A DNA stretch of 64,000 nt, taken from contig CATLAM010000005.1 of NCBI GenBank assembly GCA_949878485.1, positions 23,499-87,498 of the forward strand, in the 5' to 3' direction. This document shows positions 20,530-62,469 of the stretch, one piece after another. The translations under genes and the position numbers were made by a program. Under the pieces are notes generated by a model. That model saw nothing but the letters and a program-made list of their open reading frames with translations, made no database searches and was not told where the DNA came from. Position 1 is the first letter of the stretch, and each line of letters begins with the position of its first letter. Source of the stretch: an uncultured Eubacteriales bacterium. GTDB taxonomy: Bacteria > Bacillota > Clostridia > Christensenellales > UBA1242.

Positions 20530-20630
20530 GTAAAATTAAAAAATATATATATTATTATAATATATATAAACAGGTAAAATTAAAGAAAAAACTAATAAAT
20601 AAAAGCATGAAAAAATTTGAAAAACTAATT

Positions 20631-20660: not shown

Positions 20661-20674
20661 TCTTTTTTTGGCTT

Positions 20675-21733: not shown

Positions 21734-21772
21734 TTTAAACTCCATTTTAATTTTTAAACGACAGACACAAAC

Positions 21773-23404: not shown

Positions 23405-23425
23405 AATCACCTTCAAAAAATTTTA

Positions 23426-39300: not shown

Positions 39301-41710
39301 CTTTATAAGGCACTAAACTGATTGAATAGCCATGGTCATCTTCAACCAAAACATCGTCAGCAGTTACGTTTCGAAGTTTTTCCACACCCAAACTGTAACT
39401 GTCAGATGGTCTTAATGTTGAGTCACTGGCATTTGCAGTGACTGTAACTGTGACATCAGTGTCCTGCGTGAAGAATGCTTTATTTAAAGTGTAATCATCA
39501 TAACTTTCACCACTTGCCACCAAAGTTTCATCTTCTTGACCTGTAACACTGATTGTGTATGTTTTTACATTGCTGTCTTTGTTGAAAATTCTTAAAAATA
39601 TACTACTTCCGTTGTTTCGCAACTGAACATCCCCGATTGTTACTTTTTCGGAAACATGGAAATTTCTTTCCAAAGCAACTGCAGAAGAAATGTAAAGATT
39701 TTCACTTGCAGTGTCTGCAACTGCATATACGCGAACGATGTAATAACCGACTTTATTAAAACGATGTCGTGTTTCAGTTGTCACTGTGCTTGTCTTTTCA
39801 AATAAACTTAAATCATTGTTTTCAAAAATGTCTTTGTTGTTGGTGTAATAAATTTCCACACTATATTTATCTGCGTTTTCCACTGCATTCCAGACAAAAA
39901 CTCCATTTTGTGGATTTCCAGTTTCAGGAGCAGTTGGTTGACCAAGAAGTGTCAATGTCTTGTTTGCAGAAGAACTTATTGATGTTTCACTTTCTGTCGT
40001 GTTTGCAACAATTTTAAATTCAAACTCGTTGTCAATTGCTTCAAACAAAGTTTCCACTCTGCCGTTTAAAACAAAAGTTACAACTTTATTTAAAACTGAA
40101 ACAGAAGAAATCTTGTTTTCTTCAACTGCTTCAAAATTTGTGCCATTGAAGTGCAAAATTTTATAACTGTTTTGGTCAGCAAAATCAACTTCGCTGAAAG
40201 TCAAAACTGAATTTCCGTTTTCGTATTTGTGCATAACAAGTCCGACAGAGCCAACTTTTGTCAAAACAACATCTTCACTTGCGTTTGAGTTGATTACATA
40301 GACCATGTTTCCGTCAATGCTTGATGTTGCACTTTTTGATTGCAAAACACCAGAAAGTCTGTATTGTCCACTGACATTTGCTGTCCAAGAAAATCCGTTT
40401 TTAAAGTTGTCAAAAAGTTGAGAATCATCTTTTGAAGAAACTTTTAAAGATGTTTCCACAACTGCTGTATTTTCAACCGCCACATTAAATGCCGTTCCAT
40501 TTTCAGTGTTTTCGCCTTTGCCAGACAAAACAACTGCTGGAAGTTTGTAAACTTTGCCAAAGTTGGCGGGATTGCTTTTAAAATAATGTCTTGTTTCGTC
40601 ACGATTTTCAGCAACTACACTTATGTCATAAACGCCACCCTTTAAAAAGTCCAAAGTAGTCAAAATGTCTTGTCCAACATTTTCTAAATCAAATTCCAGT
40701 TTTCCGACAACTGCGTTTTGGGCAATCACTTTAAAGTTTTCCACGCTTTGGTTGGATTTAATCAAAATTTGTCCACCATTTGTCATTGTGAAATCGTTGG
40801 AAACAACAGGAGTTGCAAGTTTTGTAATCACGAAGTTTTCACTTGCCATTTCATATTTCACACCATTTTTGTCGAAAACCGTAACTGTCACATCATAGTC
40901 GCCATTGTTTGCGTCACTTAAATATCTTGTAAGATCAACTGCATTTGTTGTTATGTATCCGTTTGCATCAGCCCCTGCCAAATCAGAAAGCAAAGCACCA
41001 TTAAGTCTGACAGTGAACTTAGCATCTTCAATTTCTTGCCAAGTCAAAACACCAGTGTCAAAATTCCAAACAAAATCTTTTTCTTTGATTTTTTGCATAT
41101 AGCCATAATAAACTGGTTCGCTTGTTGCAAATTCACTGGCATCAAAATATTCGTGTGTGTTGGCTTTAACTTTGAAATTGTAAACACCAGATTTAAAACC
41201 TGTCATATCCAACTGATTTGTGAAAACAACTTGACTGCCATTTTCTTTTTCATTGCCAGCACCATTATAATCCCATTCAACTGTGTAAGAACTTGCCACA
41301 GTGTGAGTTGCTTCGCCTTCATACCAACCAGTAACTGTGTTCCAAACCAAGTTGCCATCAGCAAAACGAATCGAACTTGGTGCATCGAATTGTTTTCTTA
41401 CAACCACCTGCATGGATGTAAGATTGCTTTCTTCATAAAAAGCATAGACCTTTGACTTGCCTGATGCTTTGGCTTTAATTTTATGTCCATTTATTTCAAA
41501 TAAGGAAGAATCAGAAAAACGATATGTAAGTTCATCTTTACTCACACCCGTAATTTGCAAATATTCGTCTAAATCAATTTGTTCGCCAATTGAAACAATT
41601 CGTTCGTTTTCAGAAAACTGTGCTTCTGGTTTCTTGAAAGAGCATGCACAAAATAAGGTTGCCAGAAGGGTTACGCAAATTGACATGAAAACAATGCTAA
41701 ACTTTTTCAT
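30323..41710 (-). CDS. Giant (3795 aa) surface lipoprotein with Big_2-like, many FN3-like, two SH3b-like and a C-terminal GLUG-like beta-helix module
   Basis: One uninterrupted 11.4-kb ORF. Lipoprotein-type signal MKKFSIVFMSICVTLLATLFCAC, with GGGGA upstream. At least 10 FN3-like motifs (GNLVWNTV..YTVEWD, GVFVWNAVENADKYSVEIYY, NIEWNSVTNVSEYIFRVY, GNIEWSAGDAVNAEGYYIYFY, DGKLQWVY...). SH3b-like segments GTVLDILERGSGYIKIAYLGEEFYV and LLKVVETDGDYSIIKV. The C-terminus has TPYRIANADQFRNI...FKGTFEGVVNGNGHKI followed by degenerate GLUG repeats. Confidence 0.85.
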   Translation of the reverse strand: MKKFSIVFMSICVTLLATLFCACSFKKPEAQFSENERIVSIGEQIDLDEYLQITGVSKDELTYRFSDSSLFEINGHKIKAKASGKSKVYAFYEESNLTSMQVVVRKQFDAPSSIRFADGNLVWNTVTGWYEGEATHTVASSYTVEWDYNGAGNEKENGSQVVFTNQLDMTGFKSGVYNFKVKANTHEYFDASEFATSEPVYYGYMQKIKEKDFVWNFDTGVLTWQEIEDAKFTVRLNGALLSDLAGADANGYITTNAVDLTRYLSDANNGDYDVTVTVFDKNGVKYEMASENFVITKLATPVVSNDFTMTNGGQILIKSNQSVENFKVIAQNAVVGKLEFDLENVGQDILTTLDFLKGGVYDISVVAENRDETRHYFKSNPANFGKVYKLPAVVLSGKGENTENGTAFNVAVENTAVVETSLKVSSKDDSQLFDNFKNGFSWTANVSGQYRLSGVLQSKSATSSIDGNMVYVINSNASEDVVLTKVGSVGLVMHKYENGNSVLTFSEVDFADQNSYKILHFNGTNFEAVEENKISSVSVLNKVVTFVLNGRVETLFEAIDNEFEFKIVANTTESETSISSSANKTLTLLGQPTAPETGNPQNGVFVWNAVENADKYSVEIYYTNNKDIFENNDLSLFEKTSTVTTETRHRFNKVGYYIVRVYAVADTASENLYISSAVALERNFHVSEKVTIGDVQLRNNGSSIFLRIFNKDSNVKTYTISVTGQEDETLVASGESYDDYTLNKAFFTQDTDVTVTVTANASDSTLRPSDSYSLGVEKLRNVTADDVLVEDDHGYSISLVPYKDGITSKITYDASNKTSAKNTKATLDVSGVGADEFNLTFEFVGSDLVNGIYDVQNNKVFLNCDEGSKTIAFSRIAKPEQLVYENGKFNFTANGIPASEYNYVLEIAYKNANNTNFLIAIKFDGTVTATIGGSNEKIVLGRMQDFIDLSANTIDFNAIETAIYDNAKLEACYRQMNNPKFSLFVSFKQYDSITEKYLISSRNSVETQLEKLPEAELKFNFVEEDENFKLSWQVLETSSLEISNVNYKLFVNAGNTSFEEVTDFAVNYEIVSEKKFAYITLKAQDYQAGVFYNFYLTATQPHYLGTSISNNLIVYRLKSVDTLSLNENKLTASVADAGYAQKVVVTVKGVAQDYAVENNGNFAIPVAGEGEYTVKVVAKENSLNDVTNIATYYIDSLQSSWTLKSLDTVANDNVPQLRFANEVISWDKFAGNFGENLHYVLIFKDKNGVTAETSTYKIDGNTVSVELNDKSQIYKDLSKLSAGDIEIQVSANLSRYSTNKNGVIYFADLQTLLNGKQEFNHYVYQKITNKKLNVPNITNITFDNGTNNSKVEKPDVKITFEGDYDFQSGAGNDNFKVFVSSTSTSERTQLNVAVSEKTTGVFEFTLNATDYAFVQPDENLILEILATSNVNLPSTIGSKDVYMAKQVRSVEFETVLENGNEFTTHKVTVTFMDNAPEYVLGGVVLKVTDKTTNKIYFLNYDVTTVTNSITCDLTDFIKTNLQSGASISVEAFINSYSGNGNYILACKNKVSTDITENIIVLGGVATTDNYDESTTYDDIHYRADAGGFQILPATGKTLSDDIVFVVSYKVGEYSFETKEITKDDNFYFEFPAVWIDEGEYSLSIYAKQKQTENEGVINVYVNSWTNNLTFQINRAEKISQVEISRDETNQSELNIEWNSVTNVSEYIFRVYNNVNGKLIFSTTTTSNVNTLSQLFWANYNDFENVNLTVGTTDIDAKFEIISVGKDGTSNSQAYTFYAYLRPNNLSYQSVQVSEEFGTVTLETLPNYSYLYRFVSGNAVVQDWKKVTAQTTETTLDTSELEIDSAIAFNVEIIILGSADNSGTTITESATNFVFDSYFWTSSLSTTRFGKSNPILNVRYDQTDATSIILEMGQSTFANLSKVLVGVEENAVYSQRVVSLDAEKLKECGNADGDSTTPDTTRRSYAYPLSDMLAVLKELGVDYTAGKITVYFWTLENDAGGLTYVVSDAFGFDIALSDDVGFVKVDKLGNNAEPVDNANTFVLFEKNDNMLNSQTLGINVKIDYVETTYIYDERGNVIDVQYADATAYRFVDVTKLKVDYPYYDNQDYYVIDLVKMFEEDELNDITGNISIEFLRVRFNLLQQMFIVTDWLSGFDFVRLAPVSYATLSGGNIEWSAGDAVNAEGYYIYFYSVDDNGNKTESYSRFEVGNQTVFDASKFGGQNCFIEIQGVSADPFVLASSKYAVSEEPVIKNQLSGKLKLSGGSFTIDYDNVSGDATNNIYKFITENRNSDLTFEERAKTLIETTWTYPFTFKLASLLNGQVVLRMTFISNETNRTQSVDVNAKDLLTNLAEFADNNDTYDIIATLQEWSQGATTESYKRTLDDFMDFIQNGSHGVANENILFDSYFEKIQAGEYAITYCLLGGSSSLNSTWMTFVNDNIDGGNSLYVNGETNVTARREKIDSVTNSYKVIVKKEKVFDYVDGAYTAVDANQYVLQLATKSESDNGKIYAFSIDNFSGDFRLHYLSSNTDTSTFDTSKSISVYQSDKNGNKVTLGEYLMFYINQNNGDSILGVYGDLVPRTIYGMQIYAVGNENSLSSKSEYFKLILLSFGDDFAISDGVLSWTTQLNRNITVMYRTLRGSEMTEEIVTENSYATYSLNGKGEGTYSYIKFVVAGSDVVDNNIMVDSDIFEIDNVYKLASPKLTNYLGYISIDETQNGNRTRYNSSYSDGSFFQYMIYNNNNDDIYIKRVDSTLGNSVEGNGAFLYVAGRDGEEDYRYKSTEVNAENFQVISVGSTVEDVKFVRDQSDLDENGYNKNYYINRLDTSSWTNAQGNPLSAIALQSSPASLSARMLDSVQNLKVTNGRIAWSGVEGRTEEDGILTVESQAEIIYKVSIEQYSISKTDDNTTTEYTEQIVEPVYTKNAELDFADIEDKLEILDSDKQIFIKISVQALALYAQANKPNTNFVELISGGYAYGNVVYASTETETFVLLSEINDSSSMSQILRLKTVTSLEVSDGKLQWVYSANNLPNGASLTVDSFDLYYKFIVEDEDGKEISGTFEKPILQSDGTFLIKFNEDKGQMKIGNQKVKVYATTGANLDSSVIKSRGVEITVNKLDTISSNDFSIEYVGSGVDMLDLSEYFKSNQNHEVVVTFYNMYGNIINTTGNPFTLTYNKSRIYLISSPEQSYDDEYNVIIDSVSGGCNLTFKVKYNATSVLYSDVSDFIPLQRVEWQNNDSIAWDSTKGEFSWNYTGYLSLNQGVDAEVLGYAVSRETTLFNDANLTTPSEIENNKLASGTVLDILERGSGYIKIAYLGEEFYVSDMFIDRVPVDTFALSANTLLKVVETDGDYSIIKVKDADSDEEREEFYRVLSSVISKPVYIIEADYRASGKKYYTTEGTTFKPTVVGYVTLNIRVKLGPANIQSEVLQYNNGDYVMFNLFAGGDGTQATPYRIANADQFRNIQHRLKLEDYLKAGEDDNSVNYFDILADIDLSNMPFTGVLFKGTFEGVVNGNGHKITYKVTATDALTYSVYVDTGFVKSPTAGVNSTTFLYGASLFERTSINSSISNLRIDADYSDEKTVLISVHSLIAGLAISNYGMISNVELVGFNTNFSGYNANSRPMMVYSGIVSQNIGEQATVSNCFVSTDMIIEDKGSSQVIFASGIAFINQTNAKILYCMTGYSGYTVNFDPANAIPTTNKIQVSITQGQNIVQLAGICITNANAIISGCQNNLEIDVEGVSTALNCTVYIAGLVDYQGGTMTGNVNNGTLNIPHGFGSCNYALNDSDFGTRVETTLI

Positions 41711-52171: not shown

Positions 52172-52225
52172 AAAATTGAATTACTAAAACAAAAATCATA
52201 TAAATTTTAATCTAATTTATATATG

Positions 52226-52253
52226 AAAAAAAGTTCTTAAAAGAACCTTTTTT
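52226..52253 (-). terminator. Weak hairpin plus U-run after the seven-gene operon
   Basis: The minus strand reads AAAAAAGGTTCTTTTAAGAACTTTTTTT, a short GTTCT/AGAAC stem extended by A/U pairs and followed by a U-run. Confidence 0.35.
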
Positions 52254-52277
52254 CATTTTATTTTTATATAAAAAATT

Positions 52278-55200
52278 CTATTTTAAAGTTGGGAAATTTT
52301 CAGTTAAATCCCAGATTTTGTCATCAAAATGGAATTTGGTTTCATAACCACTTATGTTTTTCCCACAATTTTTGGCAGAACCAAAACCCACTCTGTTTCC
52401 AAATACATTTAAAGGCAAACTTGAGAAACTGTTTTCAATTTCTCCGCCAAGCCTACCAACCAAACTGCCAACTTCTGACAAATCATTTGAAAACAAAATT
52501 TCAATGGTTGAATAAGAAGTTGAAACTTTGGTTTTGTTTATCTTATCTGAATCTACAATAAATTTTCCATAAAGTCCGCCAACACAACTTTCTCCAGAAA
52601 ATTGACTTGTTTCAATTTTTCCAACTGTGTAGTTGTTGGAAGAACCAAGTTCGCCATAGCCAACAAGACCACCGAATGACATTTCTTGTGCATTGCCAGC
52701 AATATTGGCGTCGATGTTGACATGGTTTAAAGAAACATCAATCTTTTTCTCAGAAAAACTTTCAACCAAACCAACAAGACCTCCAACTTTCATTTCTTGT
52801 GCGTTATTTGCAGTAAGGTTAATTTTCAAGTTTTCAACAGAATTCTTTTTAAGTTCTGAAGTCTTTTTGCCAGCCACAATTTTTCCTGCCATGCCACCAA
52901 AAGTTACATCTTTTGCATTGATTGAAATTTCTACAACAAGGTCGCATTGGCTGTTGACAATTTTTCCACCCTTTAAATTCCCAACAATTCCACCAAGCAC
53001 GGCATTTATGTTGCAATCAAACGCAATTTCTCCAGAAACAAAACATCTTTCAATTGTGCCAACATTTGTGCCTGCAATCGTTCCAAACAATGATAGATTT
53101 TTATATTTCTCATTAAACAAATTTACATTTAAATTCTTTATCTTTCCTGAGTTTGTTGCAAAAAGGCCATTGCTGTTGTTTGAAAATTTGACATTTTTAA
53201 GTGTTTTTCCATTTCCATCCAATGTTCCTGTGAAATTAACGCTGTGCCAGATGATGTCTTTTAAATCCAAATCTTCTTGCAAAACAAACGAAGCATGGCT
53301 GGCATTGTGCAATAAAGTGTTGAATTCATTAACATTGTTGATTTCCATTCTGACAGGAAAAGCATAGAATCCAAGCAACAATAAAACTATGTTTGCAAAC
53401 CCAATTCCCATTAGGCTTAAATTTATTATTTTCAGTTTTAAAGTTGACTTATGCTTATTTAAAATGAAATAAATTAAACTTATAATTGCCACAGCAACAG
53501 AATAGATAAGTGTGCAGACCAAGAAATTGTAACTGAAACTCATGTAAACTTCCTTAGGTGCAGACAATGTTGTGATTAAAAGCACTGTTGTGAAAAGTGC
53601 AGGAAAATAAACCAAAAATCCAAGTAAAAACCTTTTTAAAAAGACATCTTTTCTTAAGTCTTTAATTTTCTTTCTGTGTTTTTCTTCCTTAACTTCTTCT
53701 TTTTCGCCAAGCGCATTGTTTAAATTATTTTCTTTTTCCAACAAATTTGTTACATTGATGGACGCTTCAAAAGTTAAATCCAAATTTTTAAGGCGTTGTT
53801 CAATTCTTAAAACGACATCATTAAATTCATCATATTTATGAGTGTTTTCCAACGTATTAACATATTCTTCAAAAGGCTGAAGTTGCAAGCGATAATAATT
53901 TACACCACGCAAAACAGATGTTCCTTCTTGCTTTTCCATCTCCAACAAAATTTTATAGTTTCTATCCAAGAATTCATTGGTCTTAAAAATGTATTGAGCC
54001 TTATCTAAAGCATCTTCGTTAAATTCTTTCTTCTTGCCTTTAAACAAATTCATCTTGCTGACAATGCCAGCATATTTTTCTGATTGCTGTTCGTTGGCAA
54101 GTGTCAAAAGTGTTGACCACTCTGGCAACTGTGTAATTTTCACATTTGAAGTGATGAGTTCTTGTTCTTTACGGCAATGTGTCTTTGCCAAAATTAAAAA
54201 CCAAAACAATTCAGCATTTTTCTTGTCTTTGTTGATGGCAATGGAAATGTATTTTTCTGCTTGAGTAAAAAATTCTAAATCCAAAAACTTTTGTGCGATG
54301 TTTTTTAACATTAATACCAATCGCTTGGCGTCAGAAACATATGAAAGATAGAAATCAATTTGATTTTGACATTTTTCAAGGTCAATAAACGCCACTTCCA
54401 TAATCATATTTATAAGTCTGGAAATAAACTCATCGCGCTGAGCACCGTTTAAAAACTTAAACACTGCTTCCAACTCATTTCGATTTTGATATGTAAGCAA
54501 ATCGTTGTCAGTCTTAAAATGATCAAACAAAACAGCATAATTGCTTTCTGCGTGACCTTCATCTATTTCCAAAATCTTGTCATAATATTTTTTGTTGTCG
54601 CTTTTTTGTGCCAAATCAAAATAAAACTTGACAATTCCGTCCACATCAGACTTTTTGAAACATCTTAAAACCTTTTCAATAAGTTCTTCATTCATTGTTT
54701 CCACAGCCAAAGCCTTTGCACTGTCAATAAAGTGCTGACGGTTTGGACTGTTGTATTTTGCAAGATATAAAAGGTAGGTGTTGTAATAAATTACATCATG
54801 CAGTTTAATTACAAGATTTTCCATGTTGTCCACAAATTCTTCGGCAAAATCTTTTGAAGCAAACTGCAAAATTCGGTCTATCTCTACAGTGTTTTTGAAG
54901 TTGGAAATATTGTCAAAAAACTCTTCTTTGGTTTTAATCTGCTTGGAAAGCATAAGTTGAGCAAGAAGCAGTTCGGCATTGTTGGAATCATTTTCAAGTT
55001 CGGTCACCAAAACTTCTTCCGCTGTGGCAAAGTCGCCATTTTTTAAAGACAAATAAATCCATTTAATTTTGCCTTCTTCTGTGATTTCCACATTATCCAC
55101 ATGATAATGCCCAAGTTCAAGCGGGTTGATTGTTTCAGTGGCTATATATTTTTTCTTTTTAGGTTGCACTTTGTCAACCTTTATTGTGTCAATTTTGGCA

Positions 55201-56069
55201 ATTTCAGATGCCGACTTTCGCATCTCTTCGCCAACCATAACTTGAATGTCGAACAAGAGAGTGTCAGAGTTTAAATCCAAAATATTTTTGCAAGATTGCA
55301 GTTCTATTGGAAGTCTTGACATATCCAAATTTGTTTTGTCGGCAATTAAAATAAAACTTGTTTTCGTTTTCTTTCTTTGAGAGATGAAATATAAATATCT
55401 TTCATAAATGCTTCTAAATGTGCTGTTCATGTTGGCATCTGTCACAAACAACAACAAAACTTTTGCCCTTTGAAGAGCATTGAATGTCACTTCTTCCAAT
55501 TCTTCGTTGTCAGGAACGACATAATTTCTAAAATTATGTTCGTTCAGTTTGTCTGAGATGTCCGACAAAACATTTTGCACTTTGCTTGTGTCAACAGCAC
55601 TTATAACGACATCAACTTTGTCTTTAATCTCTCTGTAAGCATTTCTGATTTTGTCAACACGCTTGGCAAGCGCATTATAAGTCTTGGCTGTTTCACTTGG
55701 TGCAAGTTCCACTGCACGCTTGAAATCGCTGTTGTTGAAAAGAGATGGTATATCTTCGCCAAAAAAGCGTGGTCGTTTAGACATGTTTTTATTATTAGAA
55801 TACAAAACAATTTTGCTTGTCGCAAGCGCTCTGCCATAGAAGCCAGCAAAAGAAAAAGGAAACAGTAACAGAATTTTGTTAAATTCATCCACTGCTTCTT
55901 TAAATTTAAGGTCACGGAGTTTTTCTGTTGCACCAACAATTAAAACTTCTTCTTCCTTTGAAGCCTGTTCGTCCACATAGAGAGTCCCACAAAACATACA
56001 TTTAACCATGTTTTGCCCAACAACCTTATATTGTCTGCCCCCACAATTTTTACAAACACGCTCTTTCAC
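52278..56069 (-). CDS. 1263-aa multidomain membrane protein: N-terminal zinc ribbon, TIR-like (flavodoxin-like) domain, TPR-like helical repeats, 3 TM helices, C-terminal extracytoplasmic GLUG-repeat domain
   Basis: GTG start at 56069 (GGAGA upstream). CKNCGG...CMFCG zinc ribbon. VDVVISAVDTSKV...RAKVLLLFVTDANMNSTF suggests a TIR-like fold. TPR-like motifs AELLLAQLMLSK and AELFWFLILAK. Three TM helices at about 53350-53640. The ectodomain has FTGTLDGNGKTLKNV followed by VLGGIVGN, FGGMAGK, VGGLVGLV, FGGLVGYG, VGGLYGK (GLUG motifs). Confidence 0.8.
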   Translation of the reverse strand: MKERVCKNCGGRQYKVVGQNMVKCMFCGTLYVDEQASKEEEVLIVGATEKLRDLKFKEAVDEFNKILLLFPFSFAGFYGRALATSKIVLYSNNKNMSKRPRFFGEDIPSLFNNSDFKRAVELAPSETAKTYNALAKRVDKIRNAYREIKDKVDVVISAVDTSKVQNVLSDISDKLNEHNFRNYVVPDNEELEEVTFNALQRAKVLLLFVTDANMNSTFRSIYERYLYFISQRKKTKTSFILIADKTNLDMSRLPIELQSCKNILDLNSDTLLFDIQVMVGEEMRKSASEIAKIDTIKVDKVQPKKKKYIATETINPLELGHYHVDNVEITEEGKIKWIYLSLKNGDFATAEEVLVTELENDSNNAELLLAQLMLSKQIKTKEEFFDNISNFKNTVEIDRILQFASKDFAEEFVDNMENLVIKLHDVIYYNTYLLYLAKYNSPNRQHFIDSAKALAVETMNEELIEKVLRCFKKSDVDGIVKFYFDLAQKSDNKKYYDKILEIDEGHAESNYAVLFDHFKTDNDLLTYQNRNELEAVFKFLNGAQRDEFISRLINMIMEVAFIDLEKCQNQIDFYLSYVSDAKRLVLMLKNIAQKFLDLEFFTQAEKYISIAINKDKKNAELFWFLILAKTHCRKEQELITSNVKITQLPEWSTLLTLANEQQSEKYAGIVSKMNLFKGKKKEFNEDALDKAQYIFKTNEFLDRNYKILLEMEKQEGTSVLRGVNYYRLQLQPFEEYVNTLENTHKYDEFNDVVLRIEQRLKNLDLTFEASINVTNLLEKENNLNNALGEKEEVKEEKHRKKIKDLRKDVFLKRFLLGFLVYFPALFTTVLLITTLSAPKEVYMSFSYNFLVCTLIYSVAVAIISLIYFILNKHKSTLKLKIINLSLMGIGFANIVLLLLGFYAFPVRMEINNVNEFNTLLHNASHASFVLQEDLDLKDIIWHSVNFTGTLDGNGKTLKNVKFSNNSNGLFATNSGKIKNLNVNLFNEKYKNLSLFGTIAGTNVGTIERCFVSGEIAFDCNINAVLGGIVGNLKGGKIVNSQCDLVVEISINAKDVTFGGMAGKIVAGKKTSELKKNSVENLKINLTANNAQEMKVGGLVGLVESFSEKKIDVSLNHVNIDANIAGNAQEMSFGGLVGYGELGSSNNYTVGKIETSQFSGESCVGGLYGKFIVDSDKINKTKVSTSYSTIEILFSNDLSEVGSLVGRLGGEIENSFSSLPLNVFGNRVGFGSAKNCGKNISGYETKFHFDDKIWDLTENFPTLK

Positions 56070-56079
56070 AAATTCTCCG

Positions 56080-57234
56080 TTATTTTTTAGGTTTCTTTAT
56101 GTAACTTGAAACTTCGTTGTTATAGTCTTCAAATTCTTTCAATTCTTTCTTGGTCACACTTGGTGGCAAAACTTCCAACACTCTGTCGAAGTCTGCATTG
56201 GTCACCAAAATGACACTGTCTGTGGCAATTGCCTTTAAAAGTGGCTCATCTTTTGCACGGTCGCACAATTCTTCAATGTCTGCACCACTGTAAAGTTCTG
56301 TTTGCTCCACAACTCTGTTGACATCAAAATCTTTGTCAACTGGCACACCTTTAAGTGCCTTTTCAATCATAAATTTTCTGGCAGGAGCATCTGGCAATGG
56401 AAGATAAATCTTTTGAGAGAATCTTCCAGAACGCATTGCTGCACTGTCAATGTCCCATGGTCTGTTGGTTGCACCAAGAAGAAGCAAGTTTTGATTTCTT
56501 CCCGAAACACCATCTATTTGTTGCAAAAATTCGTTGACACGCTTGTCATTGTGTGTGTCAACACCACGCTTGCCAATTAAACTGTCCATTTCATCAATAA
56601 AAATTATGGCTCTGTCCTGCTTGTTGGCTTCTTGGAAAAGCGAATTAATGTTCTTTTCACTGTCGCCAACCCATTTGCTGACAATGTCAGAGCCTTTTAT
56701 GGCATAAAACTTTGCACCAACTTCATTGGCAATCGCTTTTGCAATCATGGTTTTACCTGTCCCTGGTGGGCCATATAAAAGCACACCACCACCAGTTTTC
56801 TTGCCATACATTTTATATTTATCTGGATATTTAATTGGGTTGATCATGCGAATAGTAATGGCTTTCTTGACATCATCAAGTCCTGCAACATCACTGAAAC
56901 TGATTTTAGGCACTTCTGCTGTTTGCCATTTCTTTACATCTTCATCTTCTTCAGAATTGTTGTTTTCACCCTTAGGTTTTTCGCTTTTTTCCACTTTGAT
57001 TGGTTTCTTGTTTAAATTGTCAGTAAGTTCCACCAAACGACGAGCCCTGTCCATTCTTACTTCTTTAAGTTTTCCTTGACTTTGCTTAGCCATTTGCATC
57101 ATTACTTCACTTGCCAACAAGAAATTTCTCTTGGCAAGAGCAATGTTCCCTTGTTCTTTTGCCTGCTTGCCTTTTTTCATGTAAAGGTCAAATTTGTCAG
57201 ACAAAACACTTATGCTTGTATTTTTATCATTCAT
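56080..57234 (-). CDS. Vps4-like AAA+ ATPase with an N-terminal MIT-like three-helix domain
   Basis: Walker A GPPGTGKT, Walker B IIFIDEMD, pore loop SDIVSKWVGDSEK (compare Vps4 SDLVSKW[ML]GESEK), second region of homology GATNRPWDIDSAAMRSGRFSQKIYLPLPD (compare Vps4 GATNIPW.LDSAIRRRFE.RIYIPLP). The N-terminus KKGKQAKEQGNIALAKRNFLLASEVMMQM...RMDRARRLVELTDNL is MIT-like. The start was refined to ATG 57234. Confidence 0.85.
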   Translation of the reverse strand: MNDKNTSISVLSDKFDLYMKKGKQAKEQGNIALAKRNFLLASEVMMQMAKQSQGKLKEVRMDRARRLVELTDNLNKKPIKVEKSEKPKGENNNSEEDEDVKKWQTAEVPKISFSDVAGLDDVKKAITIRMINPIKYPDKYKMYGKKTGGGVLLYGPPGTGKTMIAKAIANEVGAKFYAIKGSDIVSKWVGDSEKNINSLFQEANKQDRAIIFIDEMDSLIGKRGVDTHNDKRVNEFLQQIDGVSGRNQNLLLLGATNRPWDIDSAAMRSGRFSQKIYLPLPDAPARKFMIEKALKGVPVDKDFDVNRVVEQTELYSGADIEELCDRAKDEPLLKAIATDSVILVTNADFDRVLEVLPPSVTKKELKEFEDYNNEVSSYIKKPKK

Positions 57235-57252
57235 TGGCAAAAAATCCTTTTT

Positions 57253-57849
57253 TTAGTTAATGTCAGATTCAATTTTCTTTCTAAGTTCTTCCATTTCTTT
57301 GTCGATGGATTCAGATGACATTTCATCTTGGCTTGCTTGTTCTTCAATAAACTTTTCAAATTCTTCATCTGACATTTCTTTGCCATCTCTTGCCTTTCCT
57401 TGATTATAGAAAGTTTCTTGGCTCATTTCCATAAAGTTATCCATTTGGTCAGCCTGAGTTTCAACAGCAGCCATTGCTTGTTCGAATTGATTTTGAATTT
57501 TGGCAAACTCTTTGGCATCTGCAAACTTTGTCATTTCCTTGCTGATGTCGCTCATGCCATGCAAAAATTCAGCAGTCATCATTGTTACATCTTTCATTTG
57601 TGCTGTGATTTCAAAATTCAAAAGCATTTCTTGAGCACGTTTTTGTTGTTGAACAGTCATCTTATAACCAGAAAGTGCCAAGTTATACTGAGCATCCAAA
57701 TCCTTTTGTTTTGCTTTTTTTGCAGCATCAATAAACACTTGTTTTTGTGCTTCAAGTTTGTTGATTTGCTTGTTCATCGAGTTGATTGTTCTTTTAATCA
57801 ACATTTTTTTCTCGATTGCCTTTTCTTCCTTAGATTTAAAAAGTCCCAT
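57253..57849 (-). CDS. ESCRT-III-like protein (Snf7/CHMP-like; PspA/IM30 superfamily is the alternative assignment), 198 aa
   Basis: MGLFKSKEEKAIEKKMLIKRTINSMNKQINKLEAQKQVFIDAAKKAKQKDLDAQYNLALSGYK... follows the CHMP/Snf7 helix alpha1-alpha2 hairpin pattern. The N-half is basic and the C-half is acidic (DGKEMSDEEFEKFIEEQASQDEMSSES), ending in an amphipathic helix DKEMEELRKKIESDIN. GGAGG RBS. Confidence 0.7.
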   Translation of the reverse strand: MGLFKSKEEKAIEKKMLIKRTINSMNKQINKLEAQKQVFIDAAKKAKQKDLDAQYNLALSGYKMTVQQQKRAQEMLLNFEITAQMKDVTMMTAEFLHGMSDISKEMTKFADAKEFAKIQNQFEQAMAAVETQADQMDNFMEMSQETFYNQGKARDGKEMSDEEFEKFIEEQASQDEMSSESIDKEMEELRKKIESDIN

Positions 57850-57852
57850 TTT

Positions 57853-58482
57853 TTATTCCTCCAATTTCGCTTTTTTCTTTTTTATTGTTTCCTTTGCAGG
57901 TTCTTCATAATCTTCTTGTGCTTGATATAAATCACGCTCGTCACTAAGTTGGTCTTCTTGTTCAAACATACTTAAAAGTTCTTCTTCCTGTTTTCCAACG
58001 CCATAAATAGGTTCGCTGACATCATAAGCCGCTTGCACTTCAGCAAACAAATCATCCGCACTTGTCAAAACATCTTCAGACTTTATTCTGGTTTGCAGTG
58101 CTTTGTTTAAAAACTTGGCAAGCCCAGTTTGGTCTTTCAAAAGTTCGCTGAGCGGAACTTTTGTCTGCGTTTTAAAGAAAGTGTTGCTGTCATAAGCGTC
58201 TTTAAGTTTGTTCATAAGGCGAATGTTGTAAAGCAAATACATTCCCCTTTCCATGCAAGTTTGTTTTTCTTCGTTTAAGTGGCTGATTTTCTTGGCATAG
58301 AAAAGTTGAAGTTCTTTATTTTTCTCTTTCTTTCCCTTTTCCTTTAATGCGTCAATCTCTTTCAACTTTTGAAAAACTTCCGCTTCCACTGTTCTTTCTT
58401 GTCTTTCCAATTCGCAAATGGAATTGACAAGGTCTTCTCTGTTAAGTTTTTTAAATTTATTTCTCTTAAATGGTAACCACAT
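57853..58482 (-). CDS. Second ESCRT-III-like coiled-coil protein (Snf7/CHMP4-6-like layout), 209 aa
   Basis: The start was refined to ATG 58482 (AAGGAG 5 nt upstream). LVNSICELERQERTVEAEVFQKLKEIDALKEKGKKEKNKELQLFYAKKISHLNEEKQ resembles the Snf7 alpha1-alpha2 hairpin. Acidic C-terminal region EEELLSMFEQEDQLSDERDLYQAQEDYEE followed by a Lys-rich tail. Confidence 0.55.
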   Translation of the reverse strand: MWLPFKRNKFKKLNREDLVNSICELERQERTVEAEVFQKLKEIDALKEKGKKEKNKELQLFYAKKISHLNEEKQTCMERGMYLLYNIRLMNKLKDAYDSNTFFKTQTKVPLSELLKDQTGLAKFLNKALQTRIKSEDVLTSADDLFAEVQAAYDVSEPIYGVGKQEEELLSMFEQEDQLSDERDLYQAQEDYEEPAKETIKKKKAKLEE

Positions 58483-58494
58483 AGTCACTCCTTT

Positions 58495-58848
58495 TTAAAA
58501 ATCATCGCCCGCATTGATTTTGTAAATGTTTTCCATCATGTCATCAAAACGGCGTTTTTGGTCTTTATCAGCATATTTCATGGCGTTTTCATATTCTGGT
58601 AAATAAATGGCAGTCTTATAATGAATGGCATTGTCTGTCAAATCATTTTCATTTGGCAATTGAAATTTGGCAAGCATCAACCCCCAGTAAGCATCTGCAC
58701 ATTTAGGGTCATATTGCAAAACAATTTCAAAACTTAGTCTTGCTTGTTCAAACATTTGGTCTTCCAAATTTAGATAACCAAGATTAAGTTCTTTCAATGC
58801 TTTTTCTTTATCTGCCACATTTGACGAAACTTGATATGTTCTTTTCAT
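58495..58848 (-). CDS. Small TPR protein (117 aa)
   Basis: ATG at 58848 overlaps the upstream stop (TAATG). LGYLNLEDQMFEQARLSFEIVLQYDPKCADAYWGLMLAK is a canonical TPR unit. The motif ADAYWGLMLAK recurs in the 1263-aa protein. Confidence 0.6.
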   Translation of the reverse strand: MKRTYQVSSNVADKEKALKELNLGYLNLEDQMFEQARLSFEIVLQYDPKCADAYWGLMLAKFQLPNENDLTDNAIHYKTAIYLPEYENAMKYADKDQKRRFDDMMENIYKINAGDDF

Positions 58849-59267
58849 TAAGCCTGTTCTTCCTTTTTGCGTTGAACGATGTATGCTTCCACTTCTTCCA
58901 ACAACCTTAAACAAGTTTCTTGAGTGTTGTCTTTTGCCACTGCAATTTTAAGGTCATCAAGTTTGGCTGCAAGTTTTACATCAACTGCCAAAGCCTTTTG
59001 GTTTGTTGTTGGGTTGAAGAATCTGATGTTGTCCTTAACTTCAACTAAACGATTGCAAAGTGTGTCGTTTCCGTTTGCATAAACAATAATACTTTCCACA
59101 TTTGCCACCATGCTTTCAATAGCCTTTTTGTTTTTCATAACGCCACGGCCACCAATGTCAAGTTTCTCGCCTTTCTTTCTGTCACCTTTAGAAAAATATT
59201 CTTTCCAGATGTAAAAGGCTGAAACACCTAAGATTAAAATCAAAATTACAATTAAAAATGCCAACAT
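58848..59267 (-). CDS. N-terminally anchored small membrane protein (139 aa), hypothetical
   Basis: TM LAFLIVILILILGVSAFYIW followed by a helical soluble part. AGGAGG lies 7 nt upstream and overlaps the TAG of the preceding gene. Confidence 0.6.
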   Translation of the reverse strand: MLAFLIVILILILGVSAFYIWKEYFSKGDRKKGEKLDIGGRGVMKNKKAIESMVANVESIIVYANGNDTLCNRLVEVKDNIRFFNPTTNQKALAVDVKLAAKLDDLKIAVAKDNTQETCLRLLEEVEAYIVQRKKEEQA

Positions 59268-59278
59268 AATTTTTCCTC

Positions 59279-60124
59279 CTATAATTTACTTCCACAAGAC
59301 GAGCAAAACTTTGCACCATCTGGATTTTCGGCTTGACAACTTGGACAATGGTTGTTGCCACAAACTTTCTTTCCGCAATTTGGACAGAATTTTGTGTTTT
59401 CGTCCAATGCCTGTCCACACTCTTTGCAAAAGAAACCATTTTCTGACTTTTCTTGACTTTTTGGATTTTTAAGTTCTTTAAAATGTGCTGAAAGTCTTTT
59501 ATGGTCATTTTCTTCTATTATAATGTTTGCAATGTTGAAAGAAAAAACCGCAATTCCATATTCATTCATAAGTTTTTGATTTAATTGAGTCAAAACTTTG
59601 GCAGAAACTTTTTTCTTTGTCAGTGAAAGTTGATTGAAACAAACCTTATTTGCTTCCGCAAATTGCATAACCACATCTTCCAAAACTGCAACCACATTTG
59701 ACTGCAATCTTTCTTGTAAGCCATCTGCAGTTAAATCATCAGCAACTCCAACAAGATATAAATAACATTTTCTTGGATCACCAATTTGCACTTCAAAGTC
59801 ACCACTCATTCCGACATGATAGTCTTCATCTAAAACGAAATCATAAAGCGTAAATCTCTGAGCCGTGCCCCACAAAAGTTTAAGTTTTGCAGTCTTAGAC
59901 ATAAACAAAACTTCCAAGGTTGAGCCTGCATCTTCCTTTTGGTCAACAAACGAATCAAGCCTGTATTTCCCAGATGACAAGGTTTGCAACATCTGTCCAT
60001 CTTTAACCAATATGGCATTGTGAGTTTCTGGAACGATTATTGTTTGCCTTATGTCCAAACTTTCCAACAAACATCTTGAAAAGAGTTTTTCATTACTTCC
60101 AGAAAAAGTAATAGTTTTTTCCAT
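59279..60124 (-). CDS. SPFH-fold protein (Band_7_1 / YdjI-like) fused to a C-terminal double zinc ribbon
   Basis: IIVPETHNAILVKDGQMLQTLSSGKYRLD...KLLWGTAQRFTLYD...VGMSGDFEVQIGDPRKCYLYLVG...LQERLQSNVVAVLEDVV...LMNEYGIAVFSFNIANIIIEEND matches the Band_7_1 pattern as I remember it. The C-terminus is FCKECGQAL..KFCPNCGKK..HCPSCQAENPDGAKFCSSCG (two CxxC-Xn-CxxC ribbons). Confidence 0.75.
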   Translation of the reverse strand: MEKTITFSGSNEKLFSRCLLESLDIRQTIIVPETHNAILVKDGQMLQTLSSGKYRLDSFVDQKEDAGSTLEVLFMSKTAKLKLLWGTAQRFTLYDFVLDEDYHVGMSGDFEVQIGDPRKCYLYLVGVADDLTADGLQERLQSNVVAVLEDVVMQFAEANKVCFNQLSLTKKKVSAKVLTQLNQKLMNEYGIAVFSFNIANIIIEENDHKRLSAHFKELKNPKSQEKSENGFFCKECGQALDENTKFCPNCGKKVCGNNHCPSCQAENPDGAKFCSSCGSKL

Positions 60125-61704: not shown

Positions 61705-62073
61705 TTAATTTCCTTCATACCTTTTAACCATTGTCCTTTCAGTTGCATTATTTTGCACAGAAGGACTTGCGTTATGGTTGTTGCCATTTATTATGTTTTG
61801 TGAAATTAAAGCGTCTTTCAATCCATTGATTGCAGACATCATTTCGCCGTGATTTTCTTCTGCTTGCATCTTCGCTTCTTTTGCTTTTCTTTCTTTTTCA
61901 ATATTATCAGCCAACGCGAGTATTGTGTTATCAGGAGCATTTCCTTGCTGCCTTTCAAACTTTTCCCTTGCTTCTCGTTGTTGGGCTTGTCTTTCTTGTT
62001 CTGCTTGCTCTTCAAGTTGTCTTGCCCTTTCATTGATTTTTCTCATATATTCTTCTTCTGCTGACATTTCCAT
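61705..62073 (-). CDS. Hypothetical charged coiled-coil protein (122 aa)
   Basis: GGGAGA RBS. An E/Q/R/K-rich helix (ARQLEEQAEQERQAQQREAREKFERQQ) followed by an Asn-rich tail. No recognisable family. Confidence 0.55.
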   Translation of the reverse strand: MEMSAEEEYMRKINERARQLEEQAEQERQAQQREAREKFERQQGNAPDNTILALADNIEKERKAKEAKMQAEENHGEMMSAINGLKDALISQNIINGNNHNASPSVQNNATERTMVKRYEGN

Positions 62074-62256: not shown

Positions 62257-62469
62257 ATGAACTTTTTTGGAGGCTCAAATTGTGGCGAAGTAGGTAGAGA
62301 TTGCAACTGCGGTATGGACTGCTGCTCTCTTATCTTCTTACTTTTGCTCTTACAAAACTGTGGTTGTGGCTGTGGCTGCGGTAATAAAGGTGGCGAAATC
62401 TGCATCGATTGTCAAACATTGTTGTTCTTGATTTTGCTCTCTAACTGTGGTTGCGGTTGCAAAAACTAA
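62257..62469 (+). CDS. Cys/Gly-rich small protein (70 aa) with two Leu-rich hydrophobic cores, possibly a YjcZ-like tiny sporulation protein
   Basis: Strong RBS (AGGAGG) and a strong terminator. MNFFGGSNCGEVGRDCNCGMDCCSLIFLLLLLQNCGCGCGCGNKGGEICIDCQTLLFLILLSNCGCGCKN contains two repeats of D-C-x-x-L-hydrophobic-N-C-G-C-G-C. Confidence 0.6.
   Translation: MNFFGGSNCGEVGRDCNCGMDCCSLIFLLLLLQNCGCGCGCGNKGGEICIDCQTLLFLILLSNCGCGCKN

Follow-up and report, generated by a model that had tools for sequence, protein, structure and literature searches.

Organisation of the operon

Seven minus-strand open reading frames are tightly packed between positions 52278 and 60124 of the window, the 64,000-nt stretch of DNA from an uncultured gut Clostridium, close to Candidatus Caccovivens, that was analysed here, and all were confirmed at the coordinates given below. 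In transcriptional order, the predicted products are an SPFH protein (g1), a small membrane anchor (g2), a TPR-like protein (g3), two proteins of ESCRT-III type (g4 and g5), a Vps4-like ATPase (g6) and a large membrane protein (g7). The junctions, read directly in the sequence, bear out the head-to-tail arrangement described in the first-pass annotation of this DNA: the g1 stop codon, TAG, sits within TAGGAGG, 11 nt ahead of the g2 ATG, and the g3 start overlaps the g2 stop at TAATG (58850-58846). The remaining intergenic gaps are short, as had been claimed, but their range is 3-18 nt rather than 3-12 nt.

The extended -10 promoter that had been proposed upstream of g1 was recovered as the top-scoring promoter-like site of the region, TTGCCT-18 nt-TG-n-TATAAT at 60185-60156 on the minus strand, some 30 nt before g1 begins, with 10 of 12 matches plus the TG extension (a consensus match only). 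At the other end, the proposed hairpin lies 23 nt past the g7 stop (about 52224..52255, minus strand), is followed by a U-run as in an intrinsic terminator, and has a folding energy of -16.3 kcal/mol (z = -5.1 against shuffled sequences, of which 1 in 200 folds as well); with its AT-rich stem, it was missed by a simple terminator scan. Lying between a single extended -10 promoter and a single terminator hairpin, the seven genes form a predicted transcription unit, and the ABC-transporter genes downstream have a separate promoter-like site at 52169-52140.

ESCRT-III-type proteins and the Vps4-like ATPase

Homology of the parts, their domain order and the conserved linkage of their genes are directly supported. 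Because the window's own g4, g5 and g6 N-terminal domain have no Pfam match above cut-off, the case for ESCRT-III and MIT domains depends on family profiles and intermediate sequences. For g5 (57253..57849, minus strand; 198 aa, N-terminal MGLFKSK), the window sequence alone gave no Pfam match, and a profile built from 77 diverse homologues matches CHMP2A (E=5e-7, in an alignment spanning helices alpha1-alpha4), CHMP3, CHMP1B, CdvB and Vps24 chains in the PDB, while 25 of the 77 family members match Pfam Snf7 (best E=9.6e-7). Furthermore, tblastn with g5 retrieves, at E=1e-6, a Snf7-like gene of a Thermococcus plasmid, where it neighbours a genuine Vps4. The C-terminus of the family carries a conserved acidic-x-x-h-x-x-x-h-x-x-h-basic pattern, which we take to fit MIM1 spacing and which suggests a MIM1-like amphipathic helix. 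None of the operon proteins matches PspA_IM30 in Pfam, and on these sequence matches the g5 family is assigned to the Snf7/CHMP type of ESCRT-III, not the PspA type.

The evidence for g4 (57853..58482, minus strand; 209 aa, N-terminal MWLPFK, ATG start with a GTG 6 nt upstream) is less direct, as its sequence gave no match when searched against Pfam and the PDB. Its AlphaFold (AF2) model has the helix order of ESCRT-III, hairpin plus alpha3-5, with a hairpin of helices 15-52 and 56-99 (pLDDT 83-89) and three more helices after it. The best Foldseek match, an Asgard ESCRT-IIIB, has a probability of 0.97 but is not significant (E=0.11), and helical hairpins resemble many folds. By hhalign, g4 matches the proteins L083_194/206 together with the additional ESCRT-III-like paralogues, of 198 and 201 aa, of the Thermococcus locus (probability 92%, P=7e-7), and with these added it reaches a Snf7-like profile at P=1.9e-4, whereas control profiles of unrelated helical families were negative (P>=0.07). 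Taken with the model, these intermediates suggest that g4 is a diverged second ESCRT-III paralogue, a weaker case than that for g5. Both proteins have the basic N-half and acidic C-half that had been noted, with net charges of +7 and -11 for g4 and +7 and -15 for g5, and the first-pass view of them as ESCRT-III-like holds; their placement in the broader ESCRT-III/PspA superfamily stands as well, on the Snf7 side of it, with the PspA type excluded.

The product of g6 (56080..57234, minus strand; 384 aa, ATG start with an alternative TTG at 57240) consists of an MIT-like three-helix bundle (residues 8-72), a disordered acidic linker (79-99), a single classical AAA domain and a Vps4_C-type C-terminal helix. 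The Pfam AAA match is strong (E=8e-43) and that to Vps4_C falls just under the cut-off (E=6.7e-4; 20.0 bits against 21.3), with Vps4_C exceeding the cut-off in several orthologues and precomputed in many close ones. The N-terminal bundle is modelled by AF2 with a pLDDT of about 90; across the family, MIT is the top Pfam match for this domain (4 of 20 members, best E=1.6e-4, under curated thresholds), and its best PDB match is 2mpk (E=0.023). The pore loop, SKWVGDSEK, and the signature ATNRPWDID supply the SKW-G-SE and PW motifs that g6 shares with the Vps4 of Thermococcus, and the PW motif is absent in Cdc48 and FtsH. In a neighbour-joining tree of limited size, built with few reference sequences, 80 of 100 bootstraps unite g6 with archaeal Vps4-like ATPases and keep it separate from Cdc48. 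By sequence and model, g6 is thus best described as Vps4-like, as had been proposed from its MIT-like region and Vps4 hallmarks.

By raw similarity, the AAA domain lies no further from the D2 domain of p97/Cdc48 than from CdvC. In the PDB, p97/Cdc48 D2 is the top match of g6 by sequence and by fold, its SRH region retains the Cdc48-type R-x-G-R-F where the Thermococcus Vps4 has a two-residue deletion, and the NCBIfam CdvC model, which aligns with g6 end to end, scores 211 bits against 215 for CDC48. Coupled with MIT matches under curated thresholds and a g4 that has no significant direct match, this would fit a Cdc48-like unfolding or quality-control ATPase working with coiled-coil adaptors, the likeness to ESCRT-III and MIT being generic to helical proteins. 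Such a reading is very improbable, however, because the matches of the g5 profile are specific, to CHMP, Vps24 and CdvB chains and to Pfam Snf7, the helical controls are negative, g5 and g4 match different paralogues in a Thermococcus locus whose Vps4 has a strong Vps4_C, Vps4_C passes the cut-off in several g6 orthologues, and an SPFH partner is common to PspA loci and archaeal ESCRT loci.

Partner proteins, conservation and accessory genes

The first gene, g1 (59279..60124, minus strand), encodes a 281-aa SPFH protein with two C-terminal zinc ribbons, in which Band_7_1 (E=4e-13), Zn_Ribbon_1 (E=4e-16) and DZR (E=1e-9) all match above the Pfam cut-offs and no TM segment was found in a hydropathy/TM scan. 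This predicted architecture is YdjI-like, as first described. The 139-aa product of g2 (58848..59267, minus strand) matched no family in Pfam or other profile sets, and the hydropathy scan agrees with its description as an N-anchored membrane protein, with one TM helix at residues 1-25 and a cytoplasmic helical tail. The 117-aa reading frame of g3 (58495..58848, minus strand) is as annotated, but its designation as a TPR protein draws on matches under the curated threshold (TPR_16, E=0.012; TPR_2, E=0.11).

The 1263-aa g7 protein (52278..56069, minus strand) has the layout previously outlined: an N-terminal zinc ribbon, a degenerate TIR-like region (about 150-290), a helical, TPR-like region, three TM segments within 813-907 by TM scan, and a C-terminal GLUG-like ectodomain. 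The GLUG and TIR assignments are sub-threshold in the window sequence; Glug matches at E=0.005 with GG(L/I)VG motifs repeated in the sequence, and residues 1-509 align (E=1e-17) with a 1447-aa protein of a related locus (L068) that bears Pfam TIR_2 and TPR matches. Across the window clade, the TIR motifs have degenerated. The protein is also faster-evolving, at 32-49% identity against 71-87% for g4-g6.

Among 80 species-level genomes of gut Clostridia, the core g1-(g2)-g4-g5-g6 is collinear in 74, with g1 kept as its first gene, and all seven genes are collinear in 47. A recognisable g2 homologue occupies the same position in 63 of the 80 loci, and conservation of g3 is limited to the Caccovivens-like clade. 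The arrangement is more than chance, because the same gene order is found in dozens of other genomes, and the linkage that the first-pass annotation had predicted across related genomes is borne out. The operon is flanked by housekeeping genes (tRNA synthetases, DnaB, BipA and PflB), and the same SDR and ABC genes flank it in many species, so that its site looks chromosomal and fixed.

Conserved vertically in one chromosomal position throughout a clade, and with an archaeal precedent (PMC10936438), the operon could act in cell division or sporulation-type membrane fission, like Cdv in Crenarchaeota. This is the least probable of the explanations considered: no division or sporulation genes are linked to the operon within the window, and spore formation is not established for these metagenome-assembled genomes, nothing in which supports the earlier "spore-former" label. 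Furthermore, Makarova et al. suggest a sorting or vesicle role, rather than division, for the archaeal 'Main'-type relatives, and a conditional response agrees better with the changing set of immune-like accessory genes and the presence of a surface-sensor partner.

The locus is instead probably a bacterial ESCRT-III/Vps4-type membrane-remodelling machine, its likeliest role being the repair or shedding of damaged membrane. The combination of Snf7-like, AAA/Vps4_C and Band_7_1 genes recurs in distant contigs of 39-64% GC (Band_7_1 genes are present in L082, L089 and L091, for instance), and these loci often add TIR, trypsin-like, BrxL-like or TerD genes. Some relatives combine the core with canonical TIR_2 proteins, with trypsin-like peptidases and with BrxL-like Lon ATPases, and others with Sel1+trypsin, a second AAA, an LRR protein and a TerD cluster. 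The accessory genes differ among lineages and the core is constant. The TIR, trypsin-like and BrxL-like genes speak for a role different from simple housekeeping repair.

One possibility, less likely as an account of the locus and overlapping with membrane repair rather than exclusive of it, is that the locus serves primarily in immunity or conflict, with phage or toxins as its targets. Proteins of TIR, TPR or LRR type would sense a surface or infection signal, and ESCRT-III, Vps4 and SPFH would act as the effector, sealing or shedding membrane or blocking virion exit or entry, or as a self-protection arm. The variation of accessory genes around a constant core and the rapid evolution of g7 are consistent with conflict, as are distant g5 homologues fused to a RuvB-like AAA and NERD nuclease or to an FtsK/SpoIIIE ATPase. 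Against this, PADLOC models gave generic AAA matches only (IetA, TRIP13), with nothing for the remaining six proteins; searches of phage sequences and IMG/VR found no match, and the sole plasmid match is archaeal. Unlike a mobile defence island, the operon keeps the same position among housekeeping genes in at least 47 species; canonical motifs have been lost from the TIR of g7 in the window, and the window clade is without trypsin and BrxL genes. The preferred reading is thus of an ESCRT-III machine, recycled by ATP, that remodels or repairs membrane and that may be linked to an immune or stress response.

Known systems and a proposed mechanism

Euryarchaeal 'Main-clade' ESCRT systems resemble the operon in several respects. 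They combine Vps4 with several ESCRT-III paralogues, and arCOG09748 and arCOG08177 proteins are further products of their loci (Makarova et al. 2024, PMC10936438). The example on the Thermococcus peptonophilus plasmid NZ_CP014751 likewise has two types of ESCRT-III paralogue and a single-AAA ATPase with a Vps4_C helix, and its 188-aa Snf7-like gene is the tblastn match of g5 (profile E=3e-26). It further encodes a Ser/Thr kinase and a PP2C phosphatase; in place of the archaeal partners, the bacterial operon has the SPFH-zinc-ribbon protein, the small TM anchor, the TPR-like protein and the TIR-like/GLUG membrane protein. Archaeal 'Meth_adaptin' loci encode a protein with SPFH, coiled-coil and zinc-ribbon regions (PMC10936438) and, compared by description only, share with the operon the association of ESCRT-III and Vps4 with an SPFH/zinc-ribbon protein; none of their adaptin-appendage, GOLD or ProX components was seen in the operon.

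Among bacteria, YdjI, which combines Band_7_1 with a zinc ribbon, is reported to localise PspA to the membrane (PMC11237479; PMC10936438). In the pspA-ydjGHI operon of Bacillus subtilis, as here, an SPFH/zinc-ribbon gene adjoins an ESCRT-III-superfamily gene and small membrane proteins. The polymer there is PspA rather than Snf7/CHMP-type, and the Bacillus operon is without the second paralogue and dedicated Vps4-like ATPase; no homologue of YdjH (TPM-domain) or YdjG was detected in the operon. Pairings of PspA or Snf7 with AAA proteins in bacteria have occasionally been noted by Ravi, Aravind and co-workers (mSystems 2024, PMC11237479), and a Vps4-like AAA adjoining a large TPR and TM protein, as g6 adjoins g7, was read as a membrane-proximal complex (Text S2.2). 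Their Clostridium example pairs PspA with a double-AAA protein, whereas the present operon, in Clostridia, unites a pair of Snf7-type genes with a single-AAA MIT protein and with an SPFH protein.

The eukaryotic ESCRT-III/VPS4 system has in common with the operon the basic-N/acidic-C charge pattern, the MIM1-like C-terminus and the MIT-linker-AAA-C-helix order. In contrast, the beta-domain insertion of the small AAA subdomain of VPS4 is absent from the g6 AF2 model, and the operon has no ESCRT-0, -I or -II components, its partners being entirely different. No published description of the operon was found in the literature. Recent reviews restrict the ESCRT-III/Vps4 toolkit for membrane cutting and repair to archaea and eukaryotes, with which an ESCRT-III pair, Vps4-like ATPase and SPFH scaffold conserved in gut Clostridia contrasts.

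For the working of such a machine we infer polymerisation, MIT-MIM binding, ATP-driven disassembly, recruiting roles for g1, g2 and g7, and a trigger. The two distinct paralogues g4 and g5 would form a joint polymer along the inner surface of the cytoplasmic membrane, where g1, by analogy with YdjI and PspA in Bacillus subtilis, may recruit or corral them and the small anchor g2 would hold g1 at the membrane. The MIT-like domain of g6 would bind the acidic C-terminal helices of g4 and g5 and, with ATP, draw subunits through its pore, leading to turnover or constriction of the polymer, by which damaged membrane would most likely be repaired or shed. Spanning the membrane, g7 may make polymer assembly respond to an event at the cell surface through its GLUG-like surface domain and its cytoplasmic zinc-ribbon, TIR-like and helical-repeat region, and g3 may serve as a small adaptor.

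Layout and conservation of the operon

The seven minus-strand ORFs called in the first-pass annotation were all found at the positions described, namely g1 (59279-60124), g2 (58848-59267), g3 (58495-58848), g4 (57853-58482, 209 aa), g5 (57253-57849, 198 aa), g6 (56080-57234, 384 aa), and g7 (52278-56069, 1263 aa). The first two junctions also read as reported, with the TAG stop of g1 lying inside TAGGAGG and the ATG of g2 11 nt further on, and with TAATG at 58850-58846 joining g2 and g3. The remaining gaps had been given as 3-12 nt, which is correct for g3-g4 (12 nt, with AAAGGAG in front of the g4 ATG at 58482), for g4-g5 (3 nt), and for g6-g7 (10 nt); the g5-g6 gap, however, is 18 nt if g6 starts at the ATG at 57234, which is more likely than the TTG start that would leave 12 nt. 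Because a promoter-like site (TTGCCT-18-TGnTATAAT, minus strand, 60185-60156, the best-scoring such site in the region) precedes the genes, a hairpin with a U-run (minus strand, ~52224-52255, RNA fold -16.3 kcal/mol, z = -5.1) follows them, and the two ABC exporter genes that come next have a promoter-like site of their own, the natural reading of these signals is that g1 to g7 would be expressed as one transcription unit.

For conservation, a single genome of each species was scanned, which yielded 80 loci. Every one comes from an uncultured gut member of the Clostridia that carries the label Caccovivens, Coproplasma, Christensenella(ceae), Lachnospiraceae, Catabacter, Eubacteriales, or plain Clostridia. 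In 74 of these loci the core g1-g4-g5-g6 is collinear, the other six lying mostly at contig ends or on short contigs; g2 is recognisable in 63, and in 47 the full set of seven genes lies side by side in collinear order. Across the clade of the window, g4 to g6 retain 71-87% identity and g7 only 32-49%, and the SDR and ABC genes on either side of the operon are kept too. Housekeeping proteins are also encoded in the window (two tRNA synthetases, DnaB, BipA, and PflB), and the locus looks like a fixed chromosomal one rather than an obvious island. A phage or plasmid origin of the locus was considered and rejected; no relatives of g5 were found in phage records or IMG/VR, and a tblastn search of 7.3 Gb of plasmid sequence with g5 gave as its sole match a 188-aa gene on a plasmid of Thermococcus peptonophilus (E=1e-6). 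The premise that the host is a spore-former found no support, the organism being an uncultured gut Clostridium near Candidatus Caccovivens, and a role of the operon in division or sporulation, which is less supported, strikes us as very improbable.

ESCRT-III-like proteins and the Vps4-like ATPase

The window sequence of g5 taken alone has no match in Pfam, and single-sequence searches with g4 and g5 against Pfam, NCBIfam, PADLOC, and the PDB returned nothing meaningful. An exhaustive search collected g5 homologues in 320 representative clusters, and a family profile of 77 diverse full-length members matched CHMP2A in the PDB (E=5e-7) as well as CHMP3, CHMP1B, CdvB, and Vps24; the matched chains are of the CHMP and CdvB kinds, with no PspA and no Vipp1 among them. 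Pfam Snf7 (PF03357) is matched by 25 of the 77 members, with a best E of 9.6e-7, so that by sequence profile g5 sits with Snf7, CHMP, and CdvB. PspA_IM30, on the other hand, matches neither g4 nor g5 at E<=1 and does not figure in the list of 25 families obtained with the g5 family. The earlier description of g4 and g5 as two ESCRT-III-like proteins holds for g5 and probably for g4, with a Snf7-type affiliation, whereas membership of the PspA type was rejected on the missing PspA_IM30 match and the CHMP/CdvB identity of the PDB matches. Both proteins have the basic N-half and acidic C-half of ESCRT-III, with net charges of +7 and -11 in g4 and of +7 and -15 in g5. The C-terminus of the g5 family conserves the pattern acidic-x-x-h-x-x-x-h-x-x-h followed by K/R, a spacing that we take to fit MIM1, making it a candidate MIM. 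These profile comparisons place g5 in ESCRT-III, as a member of the Snf7/CHMP type.

The 188-aa Thermococcus gene itself matches Pfam Snf7 (E=4e-4) and adjoins genes for a PP2C phosphatase, a Vps4_C ATPase (Vps4_C E=8e-9), and a Ser/Thr kinase. On this 49-kb plasmid (NZ_CP014751), positions 12031-24471 hold the Ser/Thr kinase, Vps4, PP2C, and three ESCRT-III-like paralogues of 188, 198, and 201 aa, which is how archaeal ESCRT loci of the 'Main-clade' are laid out in Makarova et al. 2024 (PMC10936438). Carriage of ESCRT genes by a plasmid points to one way in which they may spread horizontally.

The affiliation of g4 is more distant. No direct match to g4 was found in Pfam or the PDB, its family profile matched no ESCRT-III entry in the PDB, BLASTP between g4 and g5 was not significant, and direct comparison of the g4-family and g5-family profiles was marginal (P=0.002-0.03). 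An AF2 model from a shallow MSA places helices at residues 15-52, 56-99, 111-134, 137-155, and 166-190, of which the hairpin 15-52/56-99 is confident (pLDDT 83-89) although the mean pLDDT is only 62.7. A Foldseek search with this model ranked Asgard ESCRT-IIIB first (E=0.11), and CHMP3, Vipp1, PspA, and CdvB2 recurred in the top 30, no match being significant. Better evidence than the fold search comes from intermediate sequences that form a chain. A 194-aa protein from the distant locus L083 (E=2e-6) and the 201-aa Thermococcus paralogue are both picked up by the g4 family profile, and hhalign of the g4 family with the L083 proteins of 194 and 206 aa and the Thermococcus proteins of 198 and 201 aa gave a probability of 92% (P=7e-7) over 146 columns. 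These paralogues in turn match the Snf7-like 188-aa protein, at E=4e-7 in the case of the Thermococcus pair, and once the g4 profile had been enlarged by them, it aligned over the full length with the profile of the Snf7-like proteins (P=1.9e-4, probability 47%), compared with P>=0.07 for control profiles of unrelated helical families. A conserved DDELLAMFE in g4 is a further candidate MIM. Taken together with the predicted fold, the chain points to g4 as probably a second, different ESCRT-III paralogue, more diverged than g5.

The product of g6 has one classical AAA domain (Pfam AAA E=8e-43), whose pore loop is of the Vps4 type, and its SKWVGDSEK loop and ATNRPWDID motif are common to Thermococcus Vps4 and differ from those of Cdc48, p97, and FtsH. 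Vps4_C scores 20.0 bits on the window protein against a cut-off of 21.3, and exceeds it in orthologues from the Clostridia locus L068 (22.6 bits) and the distant loci L083 (22.8) and L089 (25.8); it is also precomputed for many close orthologues. The AF2 model runs from a three-helix bundle at residues 8-72 (pLDDT ~84-92) through a disordered acidic linker and the AAA module to a C-terminal helix at 362-377, the position of the Vps4_C helix. Among 20 N-domains of orthologues, four match MIT, more than match any other Pfam family (best E=1.6e-4, below the cut-off), and the L068 orthologue gives E=0.0094; the N-domain profile has as its best PDB match 2mpk (E=0.023), which we take to be the MIT domain of a chitin synthase, and the N-terminal 110 aa of g6 alone gave no MIT match in Pfam. 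Of the proposal that g6 is a Vps4-like MIT-AAA+ ATPase, the single AAA domain, the pore loop, and Vps4_C in orthologues bear out the Vps4-like part, and the MIT matches stay below threshold.

The placement of the AAA module bears on whether g6 could be a generic unfoldase of the Cdc48 kind. By raw similarity the module is closest to p97 D2, the NCBIfam CDC48 model scores about the same on g6 as the CdvC model, and p97 entries dominate a Foldseek search with the whole model, which is uninformative both on MIT and on Vps4 versus Cdc48. A neighbour-joining tree of 18 AAA modules, a small set from which eukaryotic Vps4, katanin, spastin, and PAN were left out, sets g6 and the Thermococcus Vps4-like proteins apart from Cdc48 and p97 D1/D2 in 80 of 100 bootstraps. 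The unfoldase reading is less supported, and we consider it improbable. Orthology to crenarchaeal CdvC was rejected, since g6 aligns end to end with the NCBIfam CdvC equivalog (NF041006) at 211 bits, far under the curated cut-off of 650. The label "Vps4-like" is justified.

Partner proteins and accessory genes of relatives

The remaining products include one with clear family assignments. Pfam matches of g1 are all above cut-off, comprising Band_7_1 (E=4e-13, 49.8 bits, cut-off 24), Zn_Ribbon_1 (58.6 bits), and DZR (38.6 bits), and the protein has two zinc ribbons and no TM segment; at the level of domain architecture, Band_7_1 with C-terminal zinc ribbons is the arrangement of YdjI. Against the PDB, g1 gave zinc-ribbon noise only. 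One N-terminal TM helix and no family match characterise g2, while g3 is weakly TPR-like. In g7 there are a zinc ribbon, three TM segments (residues 813-907), and C-terminal repeated GG(L/I)VG motifs, on which Glug scores E=0.005 (17.5 bits, cut-off 20.5). No Pfam TIR match was found on the window g7, in whose clade the canonical TIR motifs DVF-S-F and S-W-x-x-E are degenerate; its residues 1-509 align with a 1447-aa L068 protein (E=1e-17) that matches Pfam TIR_2 and TPR. The calls of TPR in g3 and of GLUG and TIR in g7 are sub-threshold on the window proteins themselves and draw their support from relatives.

Clostridia further removed from the window (g5 identity 49-65%) lack g3 and have g7 either replaced or at another place, and their operons have gained canonical TIR_2(+TPR) proteins, a trypsin-like peptidase (22 of the 80 loci), and a BrxL-like Lon ATPase (nine of the 80). 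In L056 (10611-14174) and other Coproplasma-type loci, a pair of canonical TIR_2 paralogues, each of ~580 aa and one of them with TPR matches besides, lies between the g5 and g6 orthologues and so splits the ESCRT-III genes from the ATPase.

The Snf7-like/AAA theme is repeated around far more distant g5 homologues (25-35% identity, contig GC 39-64%). L081 has two Snf7-like genes and an AAA gene; L082 has YbjN-like proteins, two Snf7-like genes, and Band_7_1; and L084 has Snf7-like, AAA, and trypsin genes. L089 and L090 combine TIR, Band_7_1, small proteins including a Snf7-like gene, AAA+Vps4_C, a second AAA, Sel1+trypsin, and a Snf7-like::RuvB-like fusion, and L091 has two YbjN genes, a Snf7-like::FtsK fusion, a Snf7-like gene, Band_7_1, a further Snf7-like gene, AAA, and an LRR protein. 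In L083 (261-4659, 64% GC), two AAA types accompany two g4-like genes and one Snf7-like gene, one being a Thermococcus-type Vps4 that groups with Thermococcus in 100 of 100 bootstraps and the other a g6-type AAA with 41% identity to g6 over its full length; this contig could be archaeal.

Several features of these distant loci were noted in passing. YbjN-like tandem pairs lie ahead of Snf7-like genes in two unrelated loci (L082, 6917-7867; L091, 5909-6870). Directly downstream of the Band_7_1/Snf7-like/AAA-Vps4_C/trypsin operon of L089, positions 8935-15812 encode a P-type ATPase, four TerD, C-C_Bond_Lyase, and ATPgrasp_Ter, which is a tellurite-resistance-type stress cluster. Among distant g5-homologue proteins, the homologue is fused N-terminally to a RuvB-like AAA and winged helix in P0284, P0292, P0295, P0373, and P0377, with a NERD nuclease and zinc ribbon in some, and homologues are fused to FtsK/SpoIIIE ATPase domains in P0291, P0293, P0304, and P0310; in the operons around P0292 and P0310 there are, in addition, stand-alone Snf7-like genes, Band_7_1, and AAA/Vps4_C ATPases.

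Given the immune-like accessory genes of relatives, it is plausible that the operon serves in a response triggered by stress or infection, a role that would overlap partly with that of a membrane-acting ESCRT-III machine. PADLOC-DB 2.0 gave generic AAA matches for g6 (IetA, TRIP13) and nothing significant for the other six proteins, and PHROGs likewise gave generic AAA matches only; identity with an anti-phage defence system catalogued in PADLOC-DB 2.0 was rejected on the PADLOC result, and the immune-type reading is a possibility that we hold to be rather unlikely.

Proposed mechanism, known systems, and other window ORFs

The best-supported reading, which we think is probably correct, is that the operon makes an ESCRT-III polymer that is recycled with ATP at the cytoplasmic membrane, and each step of this we infer from homology and gene linkage. 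In such a machine g4 and g5 would co-polymerise, and the SPFH-zinc-ribbon protein g1 with its anchor g2 would recruit or confine them, a role modelled on the reported action of YdjI on PspA in B. subtilis, where YdjI recruits or localises PspA (PMC11237479; PMC10936438). The MIT-like domain of g6 would bind the C-terminal helices, allowing g6 to extract subunits, and g7 may couple a surface event to the cytoplasmic assembly.

Each of the closest known systems has part of this arrangement. Two paralogue types and Vps4 are common to the window operon and the euryarchaeal Main-clade ESCRT loci, and an SPFH-zinc-ribbon partner is common to it and the archaeal Meth_adaptin ESCRT loci, which encode such a protein (PMC10936438). 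The pspA-ydjGHI operon of B. subtilis has the same SPFH-zinc-ribbon logic, but with PspA and without an ATPase. The mSystems 2024 survey (PMC11237479) reported bacterial Vps4-like ATPases in other phyla, with snf7 displaced by a TPR-6TM gene, along with PspA beside a double-AAA protein and a divergent membrane-anchored Snf7; the architecture of g1 to g7 is absent from its descriptions. A 2021 analysis found Snf7/CHMP-type proteins to be archaeal and eukaryotic, with PspA/Vipp1 in bacteria; in the words of a 2025 review, a Vps4-like ATPase "appears absent in bacteria"; and a preprint on magnetotactic bacteria describes PspA without Vps4. No published description of the g1-g7 operon was found in the full-text literature searched, beyond which papers may exist.

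A broader reading, whose chances we put at about even, is that a complete archaeal-type ESCRT-III/Vps4 machine, comprising two ESCRT-III paralogue types matching distinct archaeal ones, an MIT-AAA-Vps4_C ATPase, and an SPFH-zinc-ribbon scaffold, is present in bacteria, having become fixed throughout one clade of gut Clostridia and occurring in modified form among other uncultured prokaryotes, where it would be wired to TIR/protease/Lon-like immune-type modules. If this is true, it would be a prokaryotic counterpart of ESCRT membrane repair during immune or toxin attack. A conserved bacterial operon would also be a tractable system for ATP-driven ESCRT-III turnover beside an SPFH scaffold, would add new data on whether ESCRT history reflects ancient inheritance or archaea-bacteria transfer, in the gut and elsewhere, and would offer a possible tie between ESCRT-type repair and prokaryotic TIR/protease immune modules; it also gives a probable function to hundreds of "hypothetical proteins" of abundant gut Clostridia.

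Other ORFs of the window are recorded here. Two giant minus-strand ORFs, at 2029-20445 (6138 aa) and 30323-41710 (3795 aa), may encode giant surface proteins; the N-terminal 1500 aa of the former match Pfam Glug (E=8.5e-6), the same motif type as in the g7 ectodomain, and the first 1500 aa of the latter have no Pfam match. A functional link between these ORFs and the GLUG-like ectodomain of g7 is speculation. Outside the operon, a 122-aa minus-strand ORF (61705-62073), upstream of the divergent SDR gene, is highly charged, Glu/Gln/Arg-rich, and coiled-coil-like, and a very Cys/Gly-rich 70-aa ORF on the plus strand (62257-62469) has repeated CGCGCG runs flanking hydrophobic stretches.
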